Below are positions 4,346-61,832 of a DNA stretch of 64,000 nucleotides, one piece after another (position 1 is the first letter of the stretch; every line of letters begins with the position of its first letter). Source of the stretch: Protoeuglena noctilucae (taxonomy: Eukaryota); NCBI GenBank assembly GCA_958009085.1, contig OY253688.1, positions 496,001-560,000 of the forward strand. Reading direction: 5' to 3'. The notes under the pieces are model-generated. The model did not search any database. It was given only the letters and a program-made list of their open reading frames with translations, and was not told the DNA's origin. Position numbers and translations under genes: made by a program.

Positions 4346-6015
4346 TCACTGCAGCTCCTTGTCGAACTGGTAAACCCCGAGGCCCTTGCCCACGCGCCGG
4401 AGCTGGGACACGTACTTGGCCACCTGCAGTGCCAGTCGGGAGCATGTTATGAGGACGCGGTGTGAGGACGTGAGCAACTCGCACAGGATAGAAAGCAACC
4501 CTTTTTAGCAAGCCAAATGTGGGTCCATCCAAGCCATCGATTTGCTCTTTGCCAAGCATCTCTCATTGCCGAGCAGCACTCGCCTTGTTGACGGCGTCGA
4601 CCTGCTCGCTGAGCATCTCATCCACGAAGTCCTGCATCTGCGCGTCCCCCGCCTCCTCCGCCACCTGGTGCAGGTGCGTCAGCTTCTGCAGGTTGAGCTT
4701 CTCCAGAGCCAGCGCCATCTCCATCGCGTGCAGCGCCTCGCCCTTCTCAGCGTCGTTGAACTGCGATGGCCGGGGGCAGAGAGGTGTGTCCAGGCACACC
4801 CCACGCTAGCGGGTCACAGTCACCCTCACGGACCACCCAATGCACCTAGACACGCTCTACGCCAGTGCATCACAGTCACCCTCACAGACCACCATCTGCG
4901 TCCAGGCACACCCCACGCTAGTGAAACATCACAGTCAGCCTCATAGACCACCCCCTGCGCCCCACGCACCTCAGTGGCCGGCGCCGTGATGGGCAGCAGC
5001 TTGACGCGACCCCCGCGGACGTTCTGGTAGTCCATCAGCTGCAATCGAAGCACGGTATCGCGGCGTCAGTCACGAGGCGCGACGCACGCATCGCATCAGC
5101 GCGGGAAGGCAGGGCAGGCACACGCGCTAGCCCGGGCGCCACCCTTGCCTGCTCAGCGTGCTCGCGCTCCTCGACCGAGCTGTCCTTGAAGAACTTGGCG
5201 AAGCCCGGCAGCCCGACGTTGTCGCGGTCGAAGAAGGAGTAGAGGCTGTGGTAGATGTAGGAGATGTTGTACTCGATGTTGATCTGCTCATTGATGGCCG
5301 CCTCGCACGACGGCTTGAAGTCGACGCGGCCCAGCGACTCCGAGACCTCGTTCGTCTTCCGCACCGTGGCCAGCTCGTTCTGCGCCTGCGGGGAGTAGGA
5401 CGGGCGGGCCGGAGCTCGGGAGCGCTCGAGCGGGCGGGGCTCGTCCGGCGACCAACCAGCAGGAGTCGCGGCGCCTGCGTCATCCTCGTCGCGTCGGTCG
5501 CGGTGGACAAGCTAATAAGAGCTCTATGGATCGTGAAGCTGATACAAATGAATTGGTTCGAGCCCCCCACGCGGCGCGACGCCCCGGCCAAGTCCTGAGC
5601 AGTGCGCCCCACCTCCTTCCCGCCCATGCTCTCGAAGACGACCCCCGTCAGGTCCTGCTGCTTCTCCGACTGGGCCGAGATGCGCGAGTACCCGTTCTGT
5701 GCGCGAAGAGATCCCCGCCGCCTGCGGGCGGGAGGGGGGGTGCGGAACCAAGTCCGCTTGGCGCCACCGGGCAGCCGATGGTCCCCGCCGCCCGTCCACG
5801 CTACGCAAAGCATTCGACGGAGCCAGCGATTGCGGGCAGAGCGGTGGAAAAGGGAGGAGGGACATGAAAGGAACAGAAATTGAACCGGGTCGCCCCTCGC
5901 AGGCTGGAGAGGCCGTCCGGGATCCTGTGCGACACATGAAGCCCCTCGAACTCGCGCACCTGCTCAGGGAGGAGATCGCCGCGAGCGGCGAGGCAAGCCC
6001 GAAAGCCGCGCTCAT
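4346..6015 (-). CDS. FER: Ferritin, plastid-targeted, 6 exons
   Basis: Transit-like [26 protein letters not shown]..., then [92 protein letters not shown] and [22 protein letters not shown]. These are plant-type ferritin motifs including the ferroxidase residues. Confidence 0.95.
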
Positions 6016-6362
6016 TTCTCCGCGATCCGAGGAGCTTAGCGTCGAAGTGCGTGCGATTCACAGCGTACTATCGATGGCAGGAGTTGACGGCGAGGAGTTT
6101 TGGGCTGGAAGAGATAAAGACCCCATTTTCGGTCTGGCGTGCGCCAGGCGCGCCCGCGGCGGGCGCGAAGCACGGCACTGGCCGCACACAATTGATTCCG
6201 GCGTCGGCCTCGCCGTCGATGTGCTTGCGCAAGCTTCGGGGCCACGCGCCCCAGTCGGGCTCCGAAGGCGCACACCTACAGCTTCGTCCCGGCAGCACCA
6301 ACCCCCGCAGCCCTGCCATTGAACGACGGTCCTGTCGCTGCGGAATCAGTAGCTGCGAGCTG

Positions 6363-6440
6363 CACGTGCTCGGATGCGTCGGCAGGCGCGACCTGACCCT
6401 TTGCATACCCCGGCATGCGAGGCGTGCTCTCCGCAAACAC
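6363..6440 (-). repeat. ~78-bp direct duplicate of the last coding bases of the pLGIC gene (other copy at 8770-8847)
   Basis: cacgtgctcggatg(c/t)gtcggc...ctgaccctttgc...ccggcatgcg(a/t)ggcgtgctctccgcaaacac occurs at both positions with about 6 mismatches. Both copies encode VFAESTPRMPG(Y/N)AKGQV(A/V)PAD(A/T)SEHV. Confidence 0.9.
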
Positions 6441-6836
6441 AAGCACCAGGGGACATTTCAGACCTTGCGTGTCCTTCTTCAATCCAGCCCGCACAATGCC
6501 ATGCATGCATGTCCTGCACCCATGCCCAGACACGAGCGCCTTTGCTGCACGCTCGTCGTTGGGGTGGGTCGGAGGCCGCAGCGCTCGAGCCCCAGCGCCG
6601 ACACCTGCCCCGGCTGCGGGCGGAGGACACGGGCTGGGTGTTCAGGGCAGGGTGAGGGCTACGGAGTGACGAGGGTCGGCTGTGTGCGAGCGGCAAACGT
6701 CACGCAGGCGACGGCAGGGCAGCCGCAGCCGATGTCCAAACCCTGTCACTTCCGCACCCACCTGCACGGCTTACACACACTTTGCACCACGTGACACGCG
6801 CTATGCCTCCCTAACCCCCCCACCTGGCACCCGCGG

Positions 6837-8120
6837 TCAGATGGCCTGGCCACCGCTGCTCTTAGCCCGCAGCTCCTGCACTACGCGCTCCACAAGCCCC
6901 GGCTCCCCGCCCGCGTTGACCAGGTCCGCGCCGCGGTCGGCCACCCGCAGCACCGCCTCGGCTTTGTGCGGCAAGCTTTTTGCAGCAACGCAGATGGGCG
7001 TCCTGCCCTCCCCATCGCGCGCCTCCAGGTCCGCCCCAGCGTCCAGCAGCAGGTCCACACACGCGGCGTGCTTGACCACGTGCAGGGGCACCTGGCCTGC
7101 TGCATTGGCAGCGCTGACGTCCGCCCCCGCCGCCAGCAGCAGCCGCGCCATCTCCACCGCTCGCTTTCCATCGTCACATTCCATCGCGCCGTGGAGAGCC
7201 GTTTGAGCATGCCGACCTCTGTGATGGACGTCCGCGCCCAGCTCGATCAGAGCACGGACAGCGTCGATGTGGCGAAAACAGCATGCGACTTGAAGTGGGG
7301 CATTGTCGTCCCCCTCGCCCTGGACACTCACCCCACGCGCCGCCAGCCACCGCACCACCTCCCCATTCGCCGCGACATGCATCGCGGTATAACGCTCGCT
7401 GCCCGTGGTTGTCGCATTGGCCCCCAGCTTTATTAGCGACTCCATAACGGGCACGTTCCCACCATGCGCTGCCCAGTGTAGGGCTGAACAACCGTAGCTA
7501 TCCGCTCCATTCACGTCCGCCCCCGCCTCCACCAGCCGCCTCACGATGCCCGGCGTTGGACGACCTCTGCATACCGCTGCCAATGTCTGGTCCCGGCCAT
7601 CTTCCCCGACCTTGGCCGACGCCCCCGCCTCCAGCAGCGCCTCCACTACCGCCTCGTGACCCCAAACCCGGCATGCACCAACGCCGTCCACCACCCGTCA
7701 GTGATGTATCCTCCCTGCGCATCCACCTCCGCCCCCGCTGCCAGGCACGCCTTGACCGCCTCCAGGCAGCCCCGCGCCGTGCAGCATGACATCAGAGGCC
7801 ATGCTCTATATAGCTGCCGGTTGACGTCCGCCCCCATCGCCACCGCCACCCGCACCGCCCGCGCCACCTCCGCTTCCCCCAGCGCGTACACCCACTCCAG
7901 CCTCCCATCTGCCCCGCACCCCACTGGCCGCCGCACCCACACCGCCACCATCAGCGGCGACAGGACCATGTTCCAGTCCTCGCGCACGGCCCAGAACATC
8001 CCGTTAATGTCCGGCCCCTCCGCCACCAGCACCGCCAGCCACCACAGCCCCAGGCTCGCCCAGTGGTGCGCATGGGACCTGCCATGCGCGTACACCACCA
8101 GCGTGTCCGCCCGCCATCGC
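6837..8120 (-). pseudogene. Intronless ankyrin-repeat gene with a 1-nt frameshift near 7664 (pseudogene or sequencing error)
   Basis: Ankyrin repeats (GCSALHWAAHGGNVPVMESLIKLGAN, PLQVACCFRHIDAVRALIELGADV, LLAAGADVSAAN) are split across ORFs 7646-8254 and 6837-7694. TALVHAG..WGHEAVVEALLEAGA joins only if one base is added at GGGTTTGGGG. Start codon uncertain. Confidence 0.7.
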
Positions 8121-8766
8121 ACCCTCGTCTGCGGACACGCAAGCCGCGCACCGTCACGACTGCCCAGGCGCGCCCCCGTTCCACCACCGCAACCGCGGCG
8201 TCGGAGGCCTCGCGTCCGGCCCCGTCCTGCCAAGCCCCTGCGCGTCCCACTCACGCGTCCTGCTCCCGGCCCCCTCGGCCCCCGAACGATGCGGCGCGGC
8301 CGCAGACAAGTCTCGAGCTGCGAGACTTGAGAAGGCCGTCCTAGCTCACTTTGCTCGCTCGCTCGCGACCGATGGCTCGGGCTCGCATCCGACGTCTCGC
8401 GAGATGTGCGCTGCGTCGGGACCGAGCCGTTCGGGCCTCCCGAACGGTCGGAGGGCCGCGCGGGGGAGGCCCCGTGTCGGTTGCGCGCCAGGCCTGCGAT
8501 GCCCGCCGTCTGCTCTGCGTCGATGCGCGCGCCGGCCGGGCTATCCGTCAGAGCATGTCATCGATCGGCAAGCTGCACGTGACATCGCCCAGGGAGACGC
8601 GCAGGGAGCCGACTGCACGCGCGTCTTTGCTTTGCTTGCTTGCCCGCGAGCCCCGTCGATGGGCTGGCCGGCCGCGGCAATGCATGGCTGCATTCAAACC
8701 CTGCCTCATGCGAACTGATTTCTGCCGCTGCGTCACACTTTAGCTGCATGGCTCGCCGCGCATTCC

Positions 8767-11700
8767 CTACACGTGCTCGGATGTGTCGGCGGGCACGACC
8801 TGACCCTTTGCGTTCCCCGGCATGCGTGGCGTGCTCTCCGCAAACACCAGGTGGCACCCGTAGGCGAGCGGTTCCCACTGCTGCAGGTCCACATCCCACT
8901 CCACCAGAACTGCGAGCAGCGTGACACATGTGCACGCTCCACATAGACCCCACGCGCCGCAGCGAAGGCGAGGCGGTGGCCGAATGCGGTCCCGGGTATC
9001 CACTAATCCATGCCCTCGCATGTTCTCTTGCAATCCATCCCTCGCCCGCACACCAGCCCACCACTCACCCTCTCCCATCGTCGCGTTGAACTGCAGCACC
9101 GTCCCGACAGCCCCGGCCTCCACCCGCCGGAACTTGCGTTTCGCTCCGGCCGTCGCGACCGTTGTCGCCCCCGACACATGCGACGGCTGCGAGCCCGCCG
9201 CAGAGCCCCCTCCCATGCCCCGTGCCCCCCCGTGGCCCTTCCTCGCCACCGACGGCCCGGGCATCACCTTCATCCCCGCCCACGCGGCCGGCAGGCTCAG
9301 CAGCGTGACGAGCGCCCCGTGCTGCGGCCGTGTGGTCGCAGGCAGCGGGGGGTCCGCCAGCGCCAGCTGGTACCTCGGTCGGTCGTTACGGGGCTCTCCA
9401 ACGCAGTACGCCGCGAGGGTGCCGTCGTCCCACAGCACCTTCCACCACTTGCTGTTCTCTCCCCGCTGCACGAGCGTCCCTGTGACGTGGTCGGGCGGCA
9501 CGTAGGAGCAGTCTTCCCGGTCGTCACTGAGGACCACGCGGAGGCCCCGGACGGCCGTGTCGAAGCGAACTGCGGGGGAGGAGGGTGGGGGTGAGAGGAG
9601 TGATGGGGCGCATTGCGAAGGCGAGAGAAATAAGGAAGCGCACTGCGGGGAAGAGGGTATGGGTTGCCAAGGGTGGTGCAGCGCACTGCGAGAGTAAAGA
9701 ATGGTGAGCAAGAGGCGTGTGGTGAATGGCGAGGACATTGTAGGGAAGAGGCGGGCAACAACCAAGGTGCCAGACCAAGCGTCAGTATCACGCTCCCCGT
9801 CCTCAGCTGCCACCACCCATGCGCATGCGAGAGAGCCAGCTCCCTCACCGACCATCCCAGGCAGGAAGTCCCCACGGCTCTCCAACCCCAGCCCCGCGCC
9901 GACCAGCTCCGCAGTCTTGTAGAACCAATAGGCCCCGTTCGTGTCGCTCTTGACCACCACGGGCAGGCTCTTGTGCATCATCACGTGCACCACGGTGCCG
10001 GAGACCCCAGGGGCTAAGCACCCGAGCTGCCCCACGCCGGCCGCCTCGAACCACCGAGGAGCGATGGTCACGCGGCACCCGACTTTAGCCACCGCCTTGC
10101 TCTGGGCCACCCCCTCGCGCGTGAGCCGCTGCAGCACGGGCCACACCGGCTCCATCTGCAGCCGCTTGGACTGCAGGATGGGCACGAGGGCTGACCAGAA
10201 GGCGCGCTCGTCTCGCTTCTGGTCGAACGGGTCCATCCGCATCGCTGTCTTGCCGGTCAGGCGACCCTTGTCGTCCGTCTCGGCCTCTGCAATGGGGGAG
10301 CGTGGGTTGGATGGTAACGATTGGCTCAAACGCTCACCCAGCATACCTCTCCTAGTAAAAGCGGCGATGGCTTGACAAACACATGGCCGATGCAGTCACG
10401 TCTCACCAAACACCTTGTTGAAGTGGTGTGGCTTGTTGCCCTCCTCGTCCTCCTCCACCTCTTGCGCCTCGAGGCGCTTCGCCCCACCCTCCAGTGCCAC
10501 GGCCGCCCGGTCGCACCCGTTCTCCAAATCGGCCTTGCGCAAGTCGAGGGGCACGTAGATGGTAGATAGACCAAGCGTGAGGAAGGCCAGGGTGGCCGCG
10601 AACCACCGGCGGACGGTGCGGCGAAGGTGGCTGGCGCGGCCGAGCTGCGGGGTGGGGGCGAGGAGAGGAGGGGTTGGTGGGTAAGAGGCGATGAGGGGTG
10701 GGGACGAGGAGGGTGTGGTGGTTGGTTAAAAAGCGATGAGGGGTAGGGCCAAGGAGGGGATTCTGAAAGGCGATGAGGAATGGGGACAAGGTGACATTGA
10801 CCTCTCAGCAAGCATGCTACCAGTCTCACCTTGTTCTCCCTGGCAACTACAGTGGTAGCGCAACCTCGCAGCGCACTTCCAGTCTCACCTTGTCCTCTTC
10901 CCTGGCAATCACGTTGGCCACCGGTATCTCCTCCCCATCAAAGACCTCCTTGGCGATCTTCTCGAAGCAACGGCTGGCGTAGCCACGGACGGAGAAGGCA
11001 GACCAGTACCGGCTGCGATGGCGCGAGCATGGAAGTGTGTGGGAGTGACAGGCAACAGTACAGGCATGCACGGATTGTGTGCCGCATGTGTGGGCTGACA
11101 ACGCAGTCGCCGCACATGAAATATAGTTGCATGGCTGCGAACCACCGCCCCTCACCTGAGCTTGAAGTAGTTGGCGCCTCCCTGACTCAGCAGCCTGTCC
11201 CGTGGGTCCCAGTCGCGGTAGATGTGCTCGTGGCTGTCCACGATATGCCGCATGGCTGCCGCCACGCGCCGCTTCAGCTCCACCACCTTAAAAGCCGTCT
11301 GCAGCTCGTGCATCTTGACCGCGTTGTACACCTGCGGGCGAGATACAAGAGAGAGAGGGTGAAGAGAGGTGCATACGGTGTCGCCCAGCGTCGCGCATTG
11401 CACAACGGCGGGCGAGTCACGAGCGTGCTCAGACCATCGCGCATCCCTCTGATTAAGAAATGCTTCAGAAGGCTCCTTGTACTGCAATGGTTATGGCACA
11501 TAGTTATGGCATCGCTCAAACCGCTAGCACTCCTGCACCTCCGCACTCACCTGCAGCACGATGCCGGCGTGGATGTCGCCCGGGTCCCCGTTCTCCTGCA
11601 CTCGCTCCCGGAACTGCGCGAGCTCGATGATGGACTGGTCGACGATGCCCAGGGACTCGACCCAGGCCTGCATGACGGTGACGGCCGTCTCGCAGGCCAC

Positions 11701-13800
11701 CATCACGGCGCGGAACTGGGACCAGCGCCAGAAACCGGTCGAGAGGCGCAGGACGCAGATGAAGGCGAAGATGGCCGGGGACGCGATAAGGCTGATGCGG
11801 TCGAGGAGCCACGTGAGGTGATCCATGTTGTGCTTCCAGAGCTCGTACACGACCCACGACTCGAGGCCGGACACCCACACGAGGAGGAAGGCGGAGAGCA
11901 GGATCTCGTCCATCACGGTCAAACAAGAAACTTTCGGGAGCTTGTCCTGGAAAGGCACGGATCGGGGGGGGTGGGACAGGGTCAGAAGCACAAACGCGGG
12001 GAGGCGGAGCACGTTCACGAGAAGGCACGGGGTCAGAAGCACGGCATGCGGAGCACGTTTGAATTAATGAGCGGCCATCAAGCCCACTTATACAGATGCA
12101 ATAGTAAAGTGCAATAGCAAAGCATATATCACCTTGGTAACGAAGAGGAAGGCGACCATGGCGAGGAAGAGCGTGGTGGCCTGGGCCATGCGGGCGTTGA
12201 GCGCGTCCAGCCCCGTCATGGGGATGGAGTAACTCGAGAAGCTCATGACCATCAGCATGAAGGCGACCTGCGAGTGACGGAGCAGGGAGACTCGTATATG
12301 CATATTAAATCCCATGCTCACCATACACCTGGCTAGCATATTGCTGCAAACAAGATGAATTAAGATCCCATAACCAGATGCCCCATCATCCCCTCACCAG
12401 GAGGATGTTGATGAAGTAGTATCGGTACGCCCTCTGGAACCCCAGCCTCATGCGCAGTCGATTGGAGTCCTTCGACGCCGGCTGGGGCAGCCCCGCGCGA
12501 CCAAAGACCCACTCGTTCAGCTCGGGCATCCCCAGCCACCTGCGCGGGAGGCATGGGAGGGGCTTGGGGCATGGGGGTGTCTATGCCGCGGGCACAGGCA
12601 AGGGCGGGAGTTGGCTGGCAAAGCGTGCGAACGACAGAACGCGTTGCCTCCCCTACCCTCTGAGGGTCGCTAAGACCGTAGCAATTACAAAGTGCCTATC
12701 ACAAAGCAGCTATCATAAAGTAGCACTTTGTGATAGCTATGACCAAAGTCGCCTGGGGTGGAACCGCCAGTTGTAGTATAGCTTCATGCGGTGGCCGAGG
12801 GCGGTAATTACGATGCTGATGGTATCGCTGTCGAATGGGAAGAGCTCGAATCGCATGCGGTTTCGGATCTCCCCACGGAAACGCTGGCGGTGGCGGATGA
12901 GGCCGGCCTTGCCGTCCACGACCTCCCATGAAACGAAGCCAGGCGTACCCTCGACCTGCGGCAAGGCACGCAGACACGGTTACGACTCATGAATCCCGAC
13001 GTGGCCCATATGGCCATGCAGGGTGAGTTGCATGCGTGACTCACGACATGCCCCATGCATGAGTCACATGCGGGAGGCAGGCATGAGAGTGCGACTGCTG
13101 ATTGCAGCACGTGCACAAGCCCCCCCGCTACCATGCCCTCGCCTTCTCGAGCCCCGTCGCGTGCGTGCCGTCCTCATTGAGCAGCGCCACCTCCTCCAGA
13201 GGGTCCCAGATGCCCTCCCATGTCTCCTCGTCGCGCCAGTCGTTCGGATCCACGCCCACCATCGCCTCGTCCCGCCACACTGCGCTGATGAACATGTCGA
13301 CGTTGATCGACTTGGCCCCACCCTCCTCGCTCACGTCCATCGTCTCGATCCAAAGGCGGAAGAACACGGGGCGCTGCCGCGTGTGGTACGAGCCCCGATA
13401 GAAGACGTGGCCGAACGAGTGCTTGGCGATCTCCTGGGAGAGACTGGCACGTGCAGACGGACTCGTCGCGCTGCGCATCAGCTTCACCGTCGACCACCCG
13501 ACGAACGGGCCGGACGGCTGCAGGAGCGTGCATTCCTGAGACGGACGGCCGATGTGTCTTGGTTCGTCGGCCAAGTGTCGGCCAAGGCCCGGCCAATTTG
13601 TCATGGTTACAAAGTCCGTGCCTTGCCCGCAGTCCCCGCGCCCGCACCCGCGCCGGCACCCGCCTTGGCACAATCATGTCGGTACCTACCTGAAGAAGCG
13701 ACGGGCAGGCGACGACGTCCTCGCTAGACACGATGGCGGGGTGACGGTCCGGGGCATGCATGTCGTCGCCTTTCGCCGCGCCGGAAGCCCCGGAAGACAT
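8767..13800 (-). CDS. Cys-less (Pro-loop) pentameric ligand-gated ion channel subunit with a long C-terminal extension containing Mib/HERC2-like SH3-fold repeats, ~12 exons
   Basis: Extracellular-domain motifs VWRD...IWDP, RFRGEIRNRMRFELFPFDSDTISIVI (FPFD Pro-loop) and EW. Pre-M1 FQRAYRYYFINILL, M1-M2 AFMLMVMSFSSYSIP...NARMAQATTLFLAMVAFLFVTK, M2-M3 loop DKLPKVSCLTVMD, M4 LDRISLIASPAIFAFICVL. Downstream exons join in phase to GLRVV...GTLVQ...WWKVLWDDGTLAAYCVG...YQLALA and end at TAG 8767-8769. Confidence 0.82.
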
Positions 13801-14243
13801 CCCTGCTCTATCTATCCTGCCTGCTGCTGCCTACGTCTATCTGTATCGCAGAACACTGACCCTGGAACACGTCCGCGTGGCTCCCTAGACTGAACAATGT
13901 TCGGGGACTCGATGGTCAGGGATGCCAGGCCCACCCAGCATCCCCACGATCGTCGCTATCTTCTCCTGCCGAAGTCAGCCAACCCTGCCTGCCGGACCGC
14001 CTTTGCCCGCGTCCTGTCCTTCCCTGACATGAAAGACCGCAGTCGGTCGCAGTCAGAGCGCTGCCCGTCAGTAAAGGGCATCGGAGATGGGCTTGAGTGC
14101 AACAACCACCAAACCGCCGTCCTGCTTTCGCACTTGATGAGCGGCTGGTCGCCCACGCCCACACCCGCACACTCCGCAGGGAAAGCCTCTTTCTTAGCGT
14201 CTGTCTTTGTGGTCCTTCGCCGGGATCTCGTCGCAGGAGATCG

Positions 14244-15962
14244 ATGTCCATGTTCGGGGCGTTCTTCGGCCCTGGGCCCGATGCGGGGGGCACCTTCGAG
14301 GCAAAGTATCGCGTCTTTCCCGTGTCCTTCATCGACAAGCCGCAGCTCGAGTACGGCGACAAGGTGCGGGGCAGGACATCGCCCAGGACTTGCAGGTAGC
14401 TTTCGTGCGATAGCCGACGCGACTCTCGCCATTTCCGCGCAGGTCGTCCTCCCGCCCTCGGCCCTGAACCGCCTCACGCAGCTCCACATCCAGTACCCGA
14501 TGGTTTTCGAGATCCGCAACCCCAAGTTCCCGAAGACGTCCCACTGCGGCGTCATGGAGTTCTGCGCGGAGGAAGGGACCTGCTTCCTGCCGTACTGGAT
14601 GATGCAGAACCTGCTGCTCTCGGAGGTGACCCCGCGCGTCGCCCCGTGGCCTGCGTCATCGCGTTTGGTCGCCGAACTGACGCGGATGCATGTAGCGAAC
14701 CGCGGGAATCTCGGGGACGGCGACGCGTGCTCCGGTGCGGCGGTGCGGTCGGTCGCCATGACCACCGGGCAACGCGGATCCCGCGCCTCCCTCGCAGGGC
14801 GATTTGATCCACTTCAAGAGCGCGGTGCTGTTCAAGGGCAAGTTCGTCAAGATCCAGCCGCATACCAAGGACTTCTTGGACATCTCGGACCCCAAGGCGG
14901 TCCTGGAGACGAGCCTGCGGTGCGCTGGCGCGTGCGCGGCGCCGGGCGCGAGGCGCGCGCTCACCTGCGCAGCGCATGCTTGCTTGACAGTCGCTCCCTC
15001 CCGCGCCGGTCCTCGCCTCCCCTCGTCGGGCGCCTGCAGCGCGAAACCTCCCGTGCTTGCCCGCAGGCACTACTCCTGCCTCACCGAGGGCGATACGGTG
15101 GTCATCCAGTACAACGGGAAAAACTTTTACATCGATATCAAGGAGTGCCGGCCTCAGCGCGCCGTGTCGATCATCGAGACGGACTGCGAAGTTGACTTTG
15201 AGGCGCCGAAGGACTACGTGGAGCCGAAGCCGTCGCCTAAGGTGCCGCGATACGGGGCGCGGTATGTGCAATATGTCCAGTGCTACCCAGAGCACACGGC
15301 GGTGGCCCGCAGCGGCGCGTGCGACGAGCAGGGTGCAACTCTTTGTCGACCTCGCAGGCAGCACAGGCGGGCCCGTCGGGGGCGGCCGGGCCCGGCCAGG
15401 TGGTCAGCGGGGGCGGGGGCCGTCGCGTGGGTCTGAAGCGCCCCGACCCGCCGCAGGAGGACGGCAAGACGGCTGCCGCGGAGGCTGCCAGCACTTTCCG
15501 GTGAGTCGGCGTGGTTGGTCGCTATCGACGGTCCGTGCGCTGCGCGGCCTGCATTTCCATTATCTCCGGAAGCTCTTCGTGCTTTCGTGACACGCGCCTG
15601 AGGTTCCTGCGCCTCTGCCGTCTGCCCTCAGGCCCTTTGCGGGTGGCGGGTACAAGCTGTCGTCGGGACGGCCAGTGGAGGGCGTACCGAGCGACAAGGC
15701 CAGCGTGGCGAGCACCTCGCGCAGCCAGAGCATGTGGGGCATGGAGCGGGCTGAGCCGGGCAAGGCCCCCGAGCTGGGGACGTCCCCGTCGATCACGGGG
15801 CGACTGATGGGTGCCAAGGGCGAGCGTTTGGGGACGGCCGGGGGTGGCCAGGCGCCCGCGGCTGCGCCCAAGGACGGCGACGGCAAGGAGGGCAAGGATG
15901 GCAAGGAGGACGACGGACAGAAGTTCGAGGCTTTCAAGGGGAAGAGCTTCAAGTTGCGCTGA
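14244..15962 (+). CDS. UFD1: Ubiquitin fusion degradation protein 1, 6 exons
   Basis: [34 protein letters not shown]...[81 protein letters not shown], plus SHP-box-like PFAGGGYKL and C-terminal [12 protein letters not shown]. Confidence 0.95.
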
Positions 15963-16038
15963 CAAGAGGGGCCCGATGCTGTCACACGTGCGTGTGCGGT
16001 TGTGCGTGTTTGTGCGGGCGGATTGATGTCGAGGTTTT

Positions 16039-17777: not shown

Positions 17778-20700
17778 ATGCCTCCTTCGCGCGGGGAGGG
17801 GAAGGGGCATAAGCTGCGCGGAGAGGCTCGTGCGCCGCCTTGCCTGCGCGCCGCGCTCCATCGTGGATTCCAAGCTGTCGAATGGGTGGACACCAGCGGA
17901 TCCACGTACTATGTCGACCCAGCGACGCCCTGGGCGCTCTGGGGGGAGCCCGAGGTCGCGCGGATGCGTGCGCGTTGGATTGCCGCGATGTCTCCCTCCC
18001 GCCCCCTCTCGCAGCCCTCTCCACCATGACCTGGTACTGACGGTCGTTGTTCTGGGCGCCTCGGGGGACCTGGCCAAGGTGCGCGGCCGGACAACGGCAT
18101 CGCCCGTGGGCGAGCTTAGTAAAGGCCTCCCCGCCCCGGCTGGCTTCGATGGGGCGCCCCGCCCCGATCAATGGCACAAATATAACCTCATGATTCTGCC
18201 GGATCGCAGAAGAAGACCTACCCGGCCCTCTTCTCGTTGTTCGAGCAAGGTTTCCTTCCGCCCACGGCCCAGATCATCGGCTTCGCGCGCTCCGACCTCA
18301 CCAACGAGTCTCTCCGCGACCGCCTGCGCTCTTTCCTCAAGTCCGACAAGCCGGGCACCATCGACGAGTTCCTCGCGCGCTGCACCTACGTCCAGGCACG
18401 ACGCGAGCGGGAGCGGCGCGCTCGTGACCCGCCCGCGCCCCGCCGGCCGCGACCCGCGCTTCTCAGCTCCGTCCACAGGGCCAGTACGACGCGCCCGCGA
18501 CGTTCCGGCCCCTCCAGGCCGCCATCAGCGAGCAAGAGTCCCGCGGGCCCGGTCCTTACGGCCGCCTGTTCTACTTCGCGCTTCCCCCGACCGTGTACCC
18601 CGAGGTGTGCGCGTGCCTGCGCCAGGAGTGCGTGGCGCATCACAAGGAGCACGCGGGCAACTGGCTGCGGATCATTGTGGAGAAGCCCTTTGGGAGGGAC
18701 GCGGAGTCGAGCGAGGCGCTTTCGAACGCGATGGGCGCGCTGTTCGACGAGCACACGCTGTACCGGATCGACCACTACCTGGGGAAGGAGCTCGCGCAGA
18801 ACATGGGTGTCCTGCGGTTCGCCAACACCTTCCTTGAGCCCCTGGTGAGGTCGCGAGGCGACGTGAGTGGACTGTGCAAGCAGGATGTGCGCGATGCGCG
18901 TGTGTGCATGGAGCATGCGCATGCTGTCTCTGTGTGTTATCAGCACGTGTATGCCTGGGAACTCCCGCAGTGGAACCAGCACTATACCATACATGAAGCC
19001 CATGGTCAGTTATGTTTCGCCTCATCCGCCCCCGCAGTGGAACAAGCACTACATCTCCAACGTCCAGATCGTGTTCAAGGAGCCCTTCGGGACCGAGGGC
19101 CGCGGGGGTTACTTCGACTCGTTCGGCATCATCCGAGACGTCGTGCAGAACCACCTCATGCAGGCCCTTGCCATCACGGGTGAGTGCAGTGCTTTGCATG
19201 AGTGTATGGGTGCAGCTCAGACAAGGTCGGTAGCTGACCGTCACGAGCGTGGCGGAACTCCTCACCACACAAATTGAAACTAGTCCGTACTAACATCTCA
19301 TCAACTCCCCGTCACCAACAGCCCACAACCCGCTCCCCGCTCACTACACCAGTCACCGCCCACCCCGATCACCCCGATCACCCCGCCCACCCCGCCCCTC
19401 GCCCCCAGCCATGGAGGCCCCCGTCTCCTGGAGTCCCGACGACATCCGCGACGAAAAGGTTAAAGTCCTGCGCGCGATCGAGGTCGTGAAGCCGGAGGAC
19501 GTCGTGATCGGGCAGTACACGGCTGCGGGAGACAAGCCGGGGTACAAGGATGACGACGGCGTGCCTCCCGATTCCCGCACGCCAACGTACGCCTGCTGCG
19601 TCCTGCGCATCCGCAACGCGCGGTGGCATGGCGTGCCGTTCATCATCAAGGCGGGCAAGGCCCTCGACGAGCGCAAGGCGGAGGTGCGGGTTCAATTCCA
19701 GAGCGTGGCGTCGGAGCTCTTTGGGAAGGACCCCGACAAGAGCCGGAACGAGCTGGTCATCCGATTCCAGCCTAACGAGGCCATCTACATGAAGATGAAC
19801 ATGAAGCTGCCGGGGCTGGAGATGAGGTCGACCATCGGGTGAGGAGACGAGAGGGGCGGGGTGGGTTGGACGTGTTGTGCTGACTGGGTCGGGGTCAACA
19901 GAGGAGCTTGTCGTCTTGCATTCGCGGCGTCCCTAGCACACACAGCGCCTCGCTCTGCTCTGTCCGTGCAGGGAGCTGGACCTTACGAACCTTACACACA
20001 GGTTCAATACACACGTTCATTACACACCACCCCGCTCTGTCTATGCAGGGAGCTGGACCTGACGTACAAGAACCGCTTTGATGGTATGCGTATCCCCGAC
20101 GCCTACGAGCGCCTCATCCTGGACGCCATCCGGGGGAACCAGCAGCACTTCGTGAGGTGAGAGGGTGTACGTGTGACATTGTAAAGGGAAGCAATTGGAC
20201 ATAATGGGTACTGAGCACGCCATCCGGGGGGACCAGCAGCACTTCGTGAGGTGAGAGGGGGTTTTTGGAGATGCTTTCTAGGGTCAGCAGCGCTGGGTGA
20301 GGTGAGAGATGGTTGTGAGAGATGAGAGAGGGTCAGCAGCATTTCGTGAGGTAAGAGTGGGTGGTTGTGAGGGGATACACAGCTGGGCAGAGAGGATCCT
20401 TTCAGTAAGAGTAGCACATACACGTTTCGTGCTCTCACGCAACCCCTCACCTCCCTTCCCTCACCTTCCTCACCCCCACATCCACCCACCCAGGCGCGAC
20501 GAGCTGACGGAGCAGTGGCGCATCTTCACGCCCGTGCTGCAAGGCATGGACAGAGGGAGTGTGCCACTCGAGACGTACGCCTACGGGTCGCGCGGCCCCA
20601 AGTCAGGTGCGTTGCTGTTGCTGTCTGCTGTGGTAGGTGCTGTGGTGGGGGGTGTGGTGGGGGGTGTTGAGGTGCGATGTGCGCTTACGGGTCGCGGGGG

Positions 20701-21872: not shown

Positions 21873-24800
21873 CTACGCGTCGCTGCTCGCGGGGCCGCTC
21901 ATCACGCCCGGCTGCCACGTCGTGCCATTGGGCGTGTCCATCAGCATGATGCCGACCGAGGCCAGGCGGTCCCTGCGATGATTAGATGGCGGAGGTTGCA
22001 TCGTGGATTCGAAATCAGCACATCGTTATTATAATGATACTAGCTATCAGCAGAACCCACCCTCACCACACCCCCAACACCCCACACACCACCCCACATC
22101 CCCACCCTTCTCACCTGACTTGGTCCGACTTGGCGAAGTCCTTGGCCTTCCTCGCCTCAGCACGTTCCTCGATGGCCCGCAGCACGTCCTGCTCCGTCAT
22201 GCCGTTACGCGCCAGGCACACGCGCTTGATGCTGTCCATGCTCTGTTCGAGTGAATCGGTGTCGATTCCCATCAGATCCAGGGCGCGGGTGATGCCCTCG
22301 TGGAGGCTGGAAAGCACGAAAGCACGAAAGGGGTCATCAATGGGGTAGGGCGTGGCATGTCGCGGCGCGGGGCAACTTGGTGTGCCTGCCATGTAACTAG
22401 ATTAGCAACCTGTCGCGTCACTTCCAGCAGCCCACAGCATTATCATCATCACTGCGCATCGAACGCCATCACTCCGCACCACAACCACACGCATCACCAC
22501 CATGCACCACCCCGTCCTCGCCTGGCCAGCACCGCGACCCGGTCTGCCCTCTTCTTGCCCTTCTTGGTCTGACAGAGGTCGTTGATCTGCTTCAAGGGGC
22601 CACTCAGGGACGCCAGGGCCTCGGGGGTGCTGCGGGGAAGGCGATTGAAGCAATATGTTTGTGTCTAGGAAACATGTATGTTTGTTGGCCTTATCTTGGT
22701 ATCTATACGATGGGCTGATACCGTGCATAGCTCAAAACCCGCAGTCTTTTGCCTCACAACATCGCTGCACCTCACCCCCAGCCACTCCCTGCCGTCACTC
22801 CCTGCCCTCACCCCCAGCCACCGCTGCCCTGCACTGCACTGCACCTCACCCCAAGTCATTCCTCAGCGCCCCCTCCACCTCCCTCAGCAGCTCCCCCCCC
22901 GGCCCCGCCCCTTTCCCCACATCGCTCCCCGCCCCCGCCATCTCCCGCTCCCCAGCCCCCTCCGATGCCTGCAATGCCTGGCGGCACTCCCTGCGATGGA
23001 CGAATAATGGAGATGGGGTAGGTGGGGTCCTTGGTTAGAAAGGGATAGAGTTGTCAGGCAGGATAGGGTAGGATAGAAAGGAACACAGTAGCCAGTCATC
23101 ACATCACTCACGCGAGGGTGGCGTAGACGTAGTACAGCCGGCACGAGGCGTCGTCGAGCGCCTGCGACGAGTAGTTGACCGGCTGCCGGTAATGCGTACT
23201 AATCAAGAACCACCGCAGCGCCATCGGGTGGTATTTCTCCAACACGTCTCGTATCGTGAAGAAGTTGCCGAGGCTTTTGGACATCTTCTCAGCATCCACG
23301 TTCACGAAGCCGTTGTGGACCCTGGGGGTGGGGGTTGGTGAGGGGTGGGGGGTTTAGTGGGAGTGGCTTGGGTGGGGTGATGGGGGGTGTGATGGGGGGT
23401 TTACGGGGCGTTGGGTGTGAGAGGAGGGATACAGGTGGTGGGCGGCAGTGGTCACATGCCCATCATGCCCGTCACACGCCCACCATAACTGACCAATAAT
23501 ATATATCCCTTTATATTCCATGTTCCATATCCCTTTATATAATATAATATAATATAATATATAATAATAAATAAATAAGAGTTAATTATATTAACTCTTA
23601 GCTAATTATCGCACCGGCTCACCAGAACCGTGCGAAGTCCACCCCCCCCGGCATGTGCTGTTTGTCGCACTCGCACGCGGCTGCCTGCGACTGTGCTATC
23701 TCGTTCTCATGATGAGGGAACACCAGGTCCATGCCGCCCCCGTGGATGTCGATCACGGGACCAAGCATGCTCCTGGGAAGGAACAGGGTTGCGGGACAGG
23801 GTTGGATTTGGTTAGTGACGATGTATTTGCAGATAAACCTCCCTCATCTGCACTCAGCCACATGACAACAGAACTGATACTAGTAACAACCATTACACAC
23901 ACATACACTCTCTCGCCTAATCATGGTCGAGCACTCGATGTGCCACCCCGGCCGCCCCTTCCCCCACGGGCTGTCCCAGGTGGGCTCCCCCGGCTTGGCC
24001 GCCTTCCACAGCGCGAAGTCCGCTGCGCTGCGCTTGCCGGAGGAGTCCTGGAAACGAGGGGGGAGGGCATTTTGTTACATTGACAGTCATGACGACAGCT
24101 GTGGACAGCGACCGGTAGCGGTGACGGGGGTTGTATACAATGACACTCCCTGCCCCTATCAGCCTCAGAAGGGCACGAAAGCAGCACCGAAACATAAAAG
24201 CACGATAACAGGATGGCCGCAGCACGAAAGCACCGGACCGACATCAGAGCACGGAATGCGGCCCTCACCGCCGCCACGCGCTGGGACGCCCCCGCCATGT
24301 TGTCCTCCTCCCTCCTCCCCGACAGCCTCCCGTACCCCTTCAGCGACTTCACGTCAAAGTACACGTCCCCGTCCACCGCGTACGCGTGGCCGTGTTCCAT
24401 GATCCTCTCGATCGTCGCGACCATGTCTGGAACGTGCTGCGTGGCCCGGGGCTCCAGTTGCGGCCTGAGGCAGTTGAGGGCATCCATGTCCTGGTGAAAT
24501 GCGTCGATGTAGGTTTGGGGAAGGTCGCCTGGGTCCATGCCGCGCTCTTGGGCCCGCTTGATGATCTTGTCATCGATGTCGGTGAAGTTGCGGCAGTAGG
24601 TGACGTCGAGGCCGGACGAACGCTGCAAGGGGGAGTGGGTGAGTATTTGTGCTGTCGATGGCGAGTCATGTTGCGGCAGTAGGTGACGTCCCAAGACCCA
24701 AGGAGTGCTGCCATATGCAGAGTGGAAATGATCTTACCCTACCCAATGGTGACTTTGTGTCTATGCATTGACTCACCAGGACTCGGAAGAGGACGTCGAA

Positions 24801-60220: not shown

Positions 60221-61832
60221 TCACTGGTAGAAGGGGAGGATGTTGGTGCAGATGTAGGCCCAGCCGACACCAGAAACCCCGCCCATGAGGAACCCGGCCG
60301 TGAAGCCCTCCCAGCCAGCAGCCGTCTGCAGGGGCGGACAGCATTCGACAGCGTCAGCGTAACACAGCGTCAGTATACCACAGCGTCGGCAGGCTAGGAG
60401 CTCTGTAGCTACCGCAGGCACGCTGTCACTGCGTCGCCGCAGCCAAAGTGTCCCCTTCCCTGCCCCGCACCCCTCGCGCACCCCACGTCCCGCACCGCTC
60501 TCCCGCAGACACCCCGTCCCCTCACCTGCAGCGGGTCCTTCTCCAGCGCGCGGCCCGTGAGCGTCTTCTTGGACATCTCGTTGTCCTCGCCCTGGAAGGT
60601 GGCCGAGCCGTAGATGGACAGGCACGCCGACAGGATCAGCACCAGCCCGGCGGCAGCCAGGCACCCCGCGACCTCCGCAGAGTCTGCGAAAGAGGAGAGA
60701 GGGAGTGAGCGGGGATGGGCGATGGTAGAGGACAGAGAAACGGGGGGTACGCGGACCGACGTCTGGCAGTCTCCGCAGAGCCAGACAAGTGCAGGGCAAC
60801 AGCCAGCCAGGTGTTGAAGCGGAATCTTAGAGTGTGCTCGCAACACGCGATCCCGATCCCGAAGAGCGAAGCGCACCGGTGTTGCGGAGGGGGCCGAGCT
60901 TGATGAAGGGGCCGGCGACCAGGAAGCCGTGGGCGAGGCCGATCTCCACGCCGCGGAGCGTGGGCGACACGGCCGTGCGGTAGGCGGGGAGGGAGGACAG
61001 GTAGCTGGCGACGATCGGGGAGGACGTCACGGGCGTCTCGAGCATGCCGATGAACGGGTCGCCGTTGAGGGGCGACACGGCGGCCTTCTGCGGGCACACG
61101 CGGGGCCGGGAGGGGTGGTCGGAGCGCATGAAGGTCGACGCCGGCGACAGAGCGTTGAAGGGGAGCGCGGAGGGGAGGGAGAGGGGCGCGGGAGGACGAG
61201 CGGGGTTGGACACTGGCAGCACGATCTAGCCCGCGTGGCGACGCCCCGGGGCATCCGGCGAAGGGAGGAGGGGCGCGATGCGCAAGAAACGGGCCAAAGC
61301 GAGCGCGGGACGGAGCCGGGGCCGGCGTCTCGCGCCCGGCGGTCGGGGAGATAGGCTCGAGCGCCCGGGACGGATTCCGAGCGAGACGCGGGCCCCCGGC
61401 GAAGGCCCGCGCGACGCAGGGATGCAGGACCACCCAACGCGATCGGCAAGACGCTAGCGCGGGGATATCGGCGGGCCCGGCGCCGGGGCGCCCGACATCG
61501 GGCACCGAATCTGCGCTGCCCCGTTTCGGGAGCCGGATGGCCGCGGCGTCCGCTCCGCCCGCGGCCGACGCGTCGCGGGAAAGGCCGAGGACGCTGGAAA
61601 AGGGGCGTCGTCCGGTCCGGGGCTCCCTGGGGCCCCAGGCACCGGCCTGTCCGTTGGATGAGTTGAAATGCGCGCCCGGGAGGAGCGCGGTGCGCTCGAG
61701 GAAGCGGCCAGGGGAACATTCTCGACGACAACAGCCCCTCACCCGCTCCGCGCGCGCCACCACGGCCTGCCTCCGCGCGGGGAGGACGGACCCGAGGCCC
61801 GCCAGGGCAGTGCGAGTCGCCACGGCCTGCAT
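60221..61832 (-). CDS. psaL: Photosystem I subunit XI (PsaL), nucleus-encoded with transit peptide, 4 exons
   Basis: [12 protein letters not shown]...[75 protein letters not shown]|...[11 protein letters not shown]...KTLTGR...[28 protein letters not shown]. Confidence 0.97.

Follow-up and report, generated by a model that had tools for sequence, protein, structure and literature searches.

We report on a gene carried by the minus strand of a 64,000-nt stretch of DNA from Protoeuglena noctilucae (GenBank assembly GCA_958009085.1, contig OY253688.1, positions 496,001 to 560,000), a stretch that we call the window, and whose own numbering is used throughout. [quoted passage not shown] In our preferred reading, for which we estimate a probability of about 0.6, the 999-aa product would comprise the pLGIC core, an additional helix, a linker domain, a fifth hydrophobic helix and three barrels, and would work as a gated pore fitted with anchoring modules. 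An earlier note, made from the letters of this DNA, had followed the reading frame out of the channel core through six further exons, and splice joints found in RNA show that the frame does run this way.

The region has a GC content of 61-68% and looks like a minus-strand gene of several exons. Its coding sequence (CDS), 13800-8767, is divided into 12 exons that splice into 3000 nt and translate into 999 aa, the sole stop codon being the terminal one. The interval 8000-14500 was compared with contigs of three RNA runs (X2, X3 and X4, three samples from one study), and all 11 introns of the gene were recovered as splice joints, 11 in X2, 11 in X3 and 9 in X4. None of the 11 occurs in X5, an all-words run that we treated as DNA, its type not being on record. 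A twelfth joint in the same interval belongs to a neighbour on the + strand. In + coordinates and after shifting of the cuts, the joints lie at 8909/9069, 9569/9849, 10286/10407, 10644/10889, 11012/11156, 11331/11551, 11946/12133, 12267/12398, 12539/12753, 12955/13143 and 13535/13690. Nine introns have GT-AG ends and two have GC-AG ends (12956-13142 and 12540-12752). The tail exons named in the earlier note are real, but they join in phase only after one-base donor shifts: the exon ends are 11156, 10889, 10407 and 9849 rather than 11157, 10890, 10408 and 9850, and 9069 rather than 9068, the acceptor is 10286 and not 10287, and exon 2 starts at 13535. The least secure joint is 12539/12753, whose two sides are just 26 and 23 letters long and which was found in two runs only; it is backed by P0001, an 865-aa relative introduced below, which reads HPR/WL at this place and lacks the three residues that use of a GT donor would add. 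A 269-nt contig of X2 (12513-12781) reads unspliced through the GC-AG intron 12540-12752, which suggests that this intron is partly retained in transcripts.

The transcribed span, from the 5′ leader to the 3′ untranslated region, covers 8693..13993 on the minus strand in RNA contigs, and the RNA of the neighbouring gene begins at 14114-14121. About half of the words of 8700-13900 are present in four RNA runs, as expected when only exons are present, and all of them are present in four runs of unrecorded type. Because an in-frame stop (13833-13831) lies upstream of the ATG at 13800, and because the RNA contigs extend 5′ to 13989 and 13993 with no additional joint, the start codon can be considered fixed. 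The leader also contains an upstream ATG (13939-13941, minus strand), which opens an 18-codon upstream reading frame (the start and 17 codons, then TAG).

Could two neighbouring genes, one for a channel and the other for a barrel protein, have been wrongly joined? Nothing speaks for such an error, which we regard as extremely improbable, except that read-through models have a certain a priori chance of arising where genomes are dense. M4 and about the next 64 residues are encoded by the same exon (exon 6), and joint 11331/11551 ties this exon to exon 7 in three of the three RNA runs, against none of one in X5. Moreover, single RNA contigs, namely record 1 of X2 (1965 nt) and record 6 of X3 (2051 nt), bridge the M1 exons to exon 11 and hence exons 4-11, and the gaps between exons measure 120-279 nt with GT/GC..AG ends. 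A single transcript across M4 and the tail, which the earlier note had expected, is thus what the RNA contigs contain, and not transcripts that end after M4.

Relatives of the protein give the same picture. Among 204 candidates for the M3-M4 exon, P0001 (865 aa) is the sole longer protein, with 58% identity. The spliced window protein and P0001 are colinear, with 418 identical residues in 837 alignment columns (50%, E = 0), and P0001 is encoded by one uninterrupted 865-aa genomic open reading frame (ORF) that starts near the Pro-loop and takes in the whole rest of the core and the tail. P0001 and its four 865-aa cluster mates are found on contigs, up to 64 kb long, from metagenomes and assemblies, and five loci were retrieved. 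At one of them, L004, a single intron-free genomic ORF again covers the Pro-loop to the end of the tail, while the N-terminal half of the binding domain is found in two small upstream exons. Since core and tail share a single ORF at L004, the fusion does not depend on any splicing model. The L004 contig (68% GC) carries long intron-free ORFs (PIF1, STEEP1, TPR and a kinase), its host being therefore an intron-poor eukaryote, and shares no neighbours with the window. Between the window protein and P0001, the parts of the tail are 45-62% identical, linkers and inserts excepted.

An exhaustive HMMER search with the P0001 tail against 1.84e9 representative proteins returned 12 matches at E <= 0.001. 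Four are exon ORFs of the genome to which the window itself belongs and five are exon-sized fragments from other assemblies; the remaining ones are P0006 (a homologue of the linker), P0005 (discussed below) and one repeat protein, which was rejected. The five fragments cover the linker, the fifth helix, barrel 1 and barrel 3 and come from at least two further contig sets, several of them sharing one 7447-nt contig. Two giant repeat proteins, P0012 and P0021 (3.5e-4), were discarded as cases of repeat summation, with 15 stretches of −2.6 to 6 bits and high bias; an iterated barrel profile missed both as well. In a word-based search with the full P0001 at near lengths, only P0001 itself emerged among 8000 scored candidates, and a similar search with its core at shorter lengths gave a 95-aa fragment and one canonical pLGIC, 24% identical. 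As far as these comparisons of sequence go, the channel-plus-tail family is real, conserved and very rare. The C-termini all end in Val (...EHV in the window protein, ...FDV in P0001 and ...NGV in P0008), the last 20 or so residues being otherwise poorly conserved; speculatively, this residue may belong to a terminal sorting or PDZ-type motif.

The channel core occupies the first six exons, all delimited by RNA joints. Exon 1 (13690..13800, aa 1-37) contains the ATG and no hydrophobic signal peptide. Exon 2 (13143..13535, aa 38-168, GC donor), bounded by joints 13535/13690 and 12955/13143, encodes the predicted N-terminal half of a ligand-binding-type domain, and exon 3 (12753..12955, aa 169-236, GC donor) encodes the Pro-loop. 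Exon 4 (12398..12539) provides an Arg-rich pre-M1 stretch and the start of M1, and exon 5 (12133..12267) provides the end of M1 followed by M2 (12139-12198). The M2-M3 loop LPKVS, M3 (11845-11910), a very short M3-M4 loop of about 14 residues and M4 (11743-11802) are all encoded by exon 6 (11551..11946). The four helices M1-M4 stand out as strong peaks in the hydropathy profile (1.66-2.03). All features of the core that the earlier note had named are present, that is, an FPFD Pro-loop without Cys, M1-M4, the LPKVS.LT.MD loop and, in the alignment with ELIC, a Leu at M2 9′, and so are its three beta-rich repeats.

The FPFD sequence (aa 207-210, 12830-12841) conforms to the [FY]PxD motif, and its counterpart in P0001 aligns with FPFD of ELIC. 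No Cys flanks it: RGEIRNRMRFELFPFDSDTISIV is devoid of Cys, and the disulfide-bonded pair that lies 13 residues apart around the Pro-loop is absent from the window protein. The channel is therefore Cys-less and falls outside the animal-type Cys-loop subgroup. P0001 passes the Pfam model Neur_chan_memb, a check proposed with the original prediction, at 4.4e-9 with 37.4 bits for a cut-off of 28.1. Against PDB, P0001 gave 304 matches at E <= 1, the best 60 of which are all pLGICs; ELIC (2vl0) scored 7.4e-10 and, of the pure GLIC chains, the best scored 2.6e-9, with FPFD and M1-M3/M4 aligned. The spliced window protein itself matches P0024, a canonical pLGIC (PF02931 + PF02932), from pre-M1 to M4 in a one-to-one search (1.4e-10). 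These alignments identify the core as a divergent, Cys-less pLGIC of the prokaryotic (ELIC/GLIC) type with a predicted beta-rich N-terminal domain.

Beyond M4, exon 6 continues with a helix (aa 406-424, 11656-11718) that differs from the other helices in its hydropathy and hydrophobic moment. Of the six helices of the protein it has the lowest hydrophobicity (Kyte-Doolittle 1.24) and the highest hydrophobic moment, and it includes three polar or charged residues (Arg, Glu and Gln), the segment being almost invariant between the window protein and P0001. We read this helix as probably amphipathic and non-spanning; a six-helix topology in which it spans the membrane was judged unlikely on these same grounds. 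There follows a helical linker domain of about 150 aa, which starts in exon 6, continues through exons 7 (11156..11331) and 8 (10889..11012) and is 56% identical to that of P0001. No relatives of the linker were found in Pfam, PDB or ESM Atlas, where the latter returned no feature and only structure rows with TM < 0.5. Exon 9 (10407..10644) then encodes an Arg-rich flank, the fifth hydrophobic helix WFAATLAFLTLGLSTIYVPL (aa 575-593, 10546-10605) and an acidic stretch. The fifth helix, which corresponds to the extra hydrophobic stretch WFAATLAFLTLGLSTIYV pointed out by the first analysis and indeed present, has a Kyte-Doolittle value of 1.71, zero charged residues and a low hydrophobic moment. 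It is conserved, and so is its N-side flank, with 6-7 Lys/Arg in both the window protein and P0001 and an Arg-rich composition in P0007 too.

The tail that follows the fifth helix measures about 400 aa and appears to form three small beta barrels. Exon 10 (9849..10286) encodes a helical stretch and barrel 1 (9901-10086), which is SH3-like. Exon 11 (9069..9569) encodes barrel 2 (9328-9567), which resembles MIB/HERC2 domains, then the first strand of barrel 3 and a Gly/Ser/Ala-rich insert (9136-9240). Exon 12 (8767..8909) completes barrel 3 (VLVEWDVD...LVFA) and ends with the C-terminus ...SEHV and the TAG stop at 8769-8767. The kinship of these barrels was established through P0005, a 759-aa soluble RING protein of a public assembly that has neither membrane helices nor a channel part and is the only non-fragment relative of the barrel tail among the 1.84e9 representatives. 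P0005 scores 3.2e-34 with Pfam MIB_HERC2 and consists of an N-terminal RING followed by four copies of a unit made of a non-MIB SH3-like barrel and a MIB_HERC2 domain; against PDB, its MIB domains match MIB1 (4xi6) at 5.1e-14 and HECTD1 at 8.5e-10. The P0001 tail matches P0005 with an E value of 7.9e-13 in the library-wide search, over barrels 1 and 2 and in the same order as in the P0005 unit. Exon 10 of the window, with barrel 1, matches the non-MIB barrel of P0005 (BLASTP 2e-6; hhalign probability 68%, E 4.7e-5), and exon 11, with barrel 2, matches a MIB segment (BLASTP 0.001). A MIB profile built from the four segments of P0005 only gave single-target E values of 3.3e-11 for barrel 2 of P0001, over 68 of 73 positions, of 3.4e-5 for barrel 2 of the window, over 29 positions, and of about 5e-3 for the end of the window's barrel 3.

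Taken together, these matches establish homology between the predicted barrels 1 and 2, as a pair, and the barrel-plus-MIB_HERC2 repeat unit of P0005. We read barrel 2, and more weakly barrel 3, as probable divergent MIB/HERC2 kin, and barrel 1 as a probable sister barrel type with no Pfam family. Repeat 2 had been said to match Mib_herc2: the homology holds through P0005, but neither the Pfam threshold nor a direct PDB match bears it out. As for the flanking repeats, the first matches the non-MIB barrel of P0005 and only the end of the third reaches the MIB profile, at the value given above. No Pfam model covers the first barrel type of P0005, for which a separate family may be warranted.

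In our preferred reading, the core would assemble as a homopentameric gated pore. The fifth helix would span the membrane, so that the tail would be separated by the bilayer from both the ligand-binding domain and the linker domain. By analogy with the MIB/HERC2 and REP parts of Mind bomb, the 15 barrels of a pentamer might act as peptide-binding or anchoring modules that would tether the channel or recruit partners, a role beyond the minimal M3-M4 loop of this channel. In animal receptors, tethering and partner recruitment are done by the M3-M4 loop.

Several results weigh against this reading, some of which lend weight to other explanations. The RNA evidence consists of assembled contigs from a single study rather than of raw reads. 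In the core, exon 2, with the N-terminal half of the binding domain, has no Pfam match and 0 PDB sequence matches at E <= 10. Neur_chan_LBD (PF02931) is unreported for both P0001 and the window exons, and the alignments with ELIC and GLIC do not begin before about beta6. When Pfam was run on 11 single exon translations of the window, 0/11 yielded a relevant family, with one irrelevant match at 0.11. One might consider that the pLGIC fold has been kept while conduction was lost, the protein being a membrane scaffold or receptor that presents the linker and barrels. Such a role would suit a core so divergent that the nearest tail-less pLGIC found is the 24% identical one mentioned above, with an unmatched N-terminal half and no signal peptide. 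We nevertheless find it improbable: M2 and the M2-M3 loop are the best kept parts, TLFLAMVAFLFVTK being identical in the window protein and P0001, and both proteins retain the Pro-loop and the pre-M1 Arg. In addition, the predicted pore-facing residues T6′, L9′, A13′ and F16′, at what we take to be the M2 positions of these numbers, are identical to those of ELIC in the sequence alignment. The residues at −2′ to 0′ are N-A-R in the window protein and D-S-R in P0001, and on this basis we make no call on charge selectivity.

Further points against our reading concern the nature of the barrels. Pfam MIB_HERC2 does not match the window exons even at E <= 10, and for P0001 it reaches 14.1 bits (E 0.045, residues 663-694), below the cut-off of 33.5. 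By sequence, neither tail profile A2 nor exon 11 of the window retrieves a MIB structure from PDB, where only chance-level rows were returned. The canonical MIB loop RGPDW.W..QDGG, found in P0005 and MIB1, is absent from the window repeats; it is replaced by a short LSDDREDCSYVPPDHV in barrel 2 and by a disordered Gly/Ser-rich insert of about 35-50 aa in barrel 3. Pfam SH3_15 (PF18346) gives no match at E <= 10 for exon 10 and P0010. An AlphaFold model of the P0001 tail, computed from a 7-row alignment, is poor (mean predicted local distance difference test, pLDDT, 50.3; predicted template modelling score, pTM, 0.27), and it shows three five-strand units at this low confidence. On this low-confidence model, VIA-align superposes barrel 2 on residues 8-77 of MIB1 (4xi7_A; Z 6.7, rmsd 2.9, 67 aligned, 24% identical) and on HECTD1 (3dkm; Z 6.3, rmsd 3.5, 73 aligned, 29% identical), with all Z values below 8, a range that possibly reflects a mere common arrangement. 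The fold matches of barrel 1 tie at Z 6.4-7.6 among HERC2, Tudor, KOW, CPH, SH3 and Mib-REP in the same model, Mib REP (4tse_B; 4xi6_A residues 314-400) standing at 6.4, level with SH3, Tudor, KOW and CPH. Foldseek returned rows for KOW, Tudor, KIN17, HERC2 and MIB1 (E 2e-4 to 1e-2, rmsd 10-20 over two domains), which are usable only as a sign that the tail model may contain tandem SH3-like barrels, and for nothing more specific.

It follows that the barrels might be generic SH3/Tudor/KOW-like modules, in which case the pattern G.RV...GT.V...W.V.WDDG would result from convergence or from a constraint of the shared fold. The sub-threshold or absent Pfam matches would fit this explanation, and so would the failure of sequence searches with the window and with profile A2 to retrieve a MIB structure, as would the tie of barrel 1 among many SH3-like families (Z 5.5-7.6) and the fact that an iterated barrel-1 profile also drew in MIB-type segments, which points to a generic core pattern common to both. 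We hold it to be rather unlikely. The library-wide match to P0005 involves a barrel-plus-MIB unit in matching order, the profile that matches barrel 2 of P0001 over 68 of its own 73 positions was built only from Pfam-verified MIB segments, and the structure-based identity of barrel 2 to MIB1 and HECTD1 (24-29%) compares with 8-22% in the barrel-1 rows.

Finally, the canonical topology, with a cytosolic tail, meets several objections. No hydrophobic segment is found in the first 200 or so residues of the window protein, none occurring before residue 204, so that no signal peptide, which a canonical pLGIC requires, is apparent. The same is true of L004, where only about 10 residues precede the conserved CTLL.P.GPF.GW and none of them form a hydrophobic segment, unlike the canonical P0024, which carries a plain signal peptide. 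Counting Lys+Arg in loops and 15-residue flanks, a rule of thumb, the canonical orientation with a cytosolic tail has 4 such residues inside versus 14 outside (4 versus 13 in P0001), while the inverted orientation has 14 inside versus 4 outside (13 versus 4 in P0001). P0006 (264 aa, from a public assembly) is 29% identical to the post-M4 linker and has no fifth helix in the alignment; if it is full-length, there are relatives in which the membrane does not come between the linker and what lies downstream of it.

These observations open the way to an inverted channel, in which the N-terminal binding-type domain and the linker would be cytosolic and the fifth helix would act as an N-in/C-out signal anchor, leaving the barrels outside the cell or in the lumen of an organelle. 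The channel would then be gated from the cytosol, and partners of the barrels would be exoplasmic or luminal. Besides the charge counts and the missing N-terminal segment in both the window protein, whose start codon is fixed, and L004, this arrangement would account for the Lys/Arg-rich flank before the fifth helix, which is shared by both orthologs and by P0007, and for the absence of N-x-S/T sequons in the first 274 residues and in the linker. The suggestion that the fifth helix moves the repeats to the cytosol does not hold up well, real as the helix is: with 6-7 Lys/Arg before it and no signal peptide, standard insertion rules place the tail on the non-cytosolic side. Against the inverted arrangement, P0005 carries a RING, and we know of no MIB/HERC2-type barrels outside cytosolic proteins. 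The tail bears no mark of secretion, with a single conserved Cys and one unconserved sequon, and charge counting is only a rule of thumb. Two studies (PMC549065 and PMC4795631) describe the pLGIC binding domain as extracellular, and no inverted pLGIC was found in the full-text literature. All in all, as far as orientation is concerned, we give roughly equal odds to the canonical arrangement, with an outside binding domain and a cytosolic tail, and to its inverse, and view the inverted channel as a whole as a possible but doubtful explanation. In both five-helix topologies the binding domain and the linker would be on the same side of the membrane, with the barrels on the other. Should the inverted channel prove true, it would be a pLGIC gated by a cytosolic ligand and used like an intracellular release channel, which we did not find described for this superfamily. 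The absence of a signal peptide in the family makes a pLGIC of opposite orientation testable.

Our preferred reading, a gated pore with anchoring modules, can be set against known systems. ELIC and GLIC are the best PDB sequence matches of P0001 and share with the window protein the lack of a Cys-loop disulfide, the FPFD sequence, a very short M3-M4 loop and, for ELIC, the pore face. They differ in that they end soon after M4, with chains of 307-329 residues that align almost to their ends, whereas the window protein adds about 600 aa and another hydrophobic helix, has no signal peptide and has a binding-domain N-terminal half that is unrecognisable by sequence. According to Tasneem 2004 (PMC549065), pLGICs follow a stereotyped plan of a ligand-binding domain and four transmembrane helices, from which some bacterial members depart through N-terminal fusions to PBP-I or to MCP-N + Cache; DeCLIC (PMC9897478) is also described as having an extra N-terminal domain. 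These channels are alike in combining a pLGIC core with an appended globular domain, but the additions described there are N-terminal, extracellular and devoted to small-molecule sensing, while the window protein carries its additions at the C-terminal end, beyond M4, where they comprise a fifth helix and appear to be of the protein-interaction type.

For the barrels, the closest parallels are MIB1 (MZM and REP), HECTD1 and HERC2 (PF06701; 4xi6, 4xi7, 4tse, 3dkm and 2dk3), which also contain small SH3-like barrels in tandem and with which barrel 2 of the window shares the pattern G.RV ... GT.V ... W.V.WDDG ... Y.VG ... L. According to PMC11887331, Mind bomb, through its MZM and REP domains, binds Notch ligands at two short boxes in their tails. 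Unlike these proteins, the window protein has no RING, HECT, ZZ or ankyrin parts, and the loop between strands 1 and 2 is replaced. P0005 has the two-barrel unit in matching order and differs in being a soluble RING E3-type protein with canonical MIB domains and no channel. Cys-less pLGICs have been reported to occur patchily in protists, including Chlorophyta (Jaiteh, Taly and Henin 2016, PMC4795631; cited in PMC11085791). The window protein belongs to the same superfamily and shares this patchy distribution in unicellular eukaryotes. In PMC4795631, the analysis deals with the ligand-binding domain and four-helix core only, extraneous N- and C-terminal domains having been truncated, and such architectures are known at genome level only. 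Surveys that trim termini in this way can miss the most unusual members. As the earlier note had supposed, the architecture appears undescribed: in the full-text literature, supplements lying outside the search, we found no C-terminal fusion, fifth helix, MIB/HERC2 link or inverted pLGIC.

The window gene is an expressed and conserved departure from the plan of a binding domain and four helices. It provides a natural test case for the anchoring and regulation of a channel with almost no M3-M4 loop, and may represent barrels of the kind that ubiquitin ligases use to bind substrates wired to an ion channel in algae.

A separate observation concerning such barrels comes from ESM Atlas, in which the clusters nearest to window 9850-10284 (minus strand) are Mind bomb SH3-repeat (SH3_15) proteins of Streptophyta, with scores of 0.81-0.83 (0.83 for the nearest) that make this a lead only. 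In these clusters, 12-53% of members also have an MscS channel domain (MS_channel_2nd). If this co-occurrence is real, the green lineage would have a second type of channel joined to Mib-type barrels; none of the papers returned by a literature search on this lead contained the term “Mind bomb SH3”.

The genes around the channel support the algal origin proposed in the earlier note. PsaL, found by Pfam on raw ORFs at 60224-61026 (minus strand), is nuclear and split by introns, which points to a green-lineage alga, and the RNA sets that match the window are marine metatranscriptomes. Pfam on raw ORFs also identified glucose-6-phosphate dehydrogenase (18186-19839, plus strand), cysteinyl-tRNA synthetase (23924-24733, minus strand) and, just downstream of the channel gene, an ankyrin-repeat protein (6840-7697, minus strand, 1.4e-45). 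A divergent UFD1 gene (14114-15433, plus strand) starts about 120 nt from the 5′ end of the channel gene and was recognized by Pfam; it has a GT-AG intron of its own at 14362-14440. No Rfam family was found in window 6000-16000.

Two repeats were noticed in and near the channel gene. Some 2.4 kb downstream of it and on the same strand, 6360-6443 repeats the final 84 nt of its last exon (8767-8850) at 90% identity. The copy encodes ...LVFAESTPRMPG.AKGQV.PAD.SEHV, with the stop codon changed to Gln; it may be a relic, or another gene may have borrowed it as its end. Within intron 8, four tandem-like copies of about 45 nt each occupy 10621-10793. Contigs of X5 have loose ends at 10642 and 10645 and a slightly raised depth there, from which it follows that the genome contains further copies of a portion of this intron.

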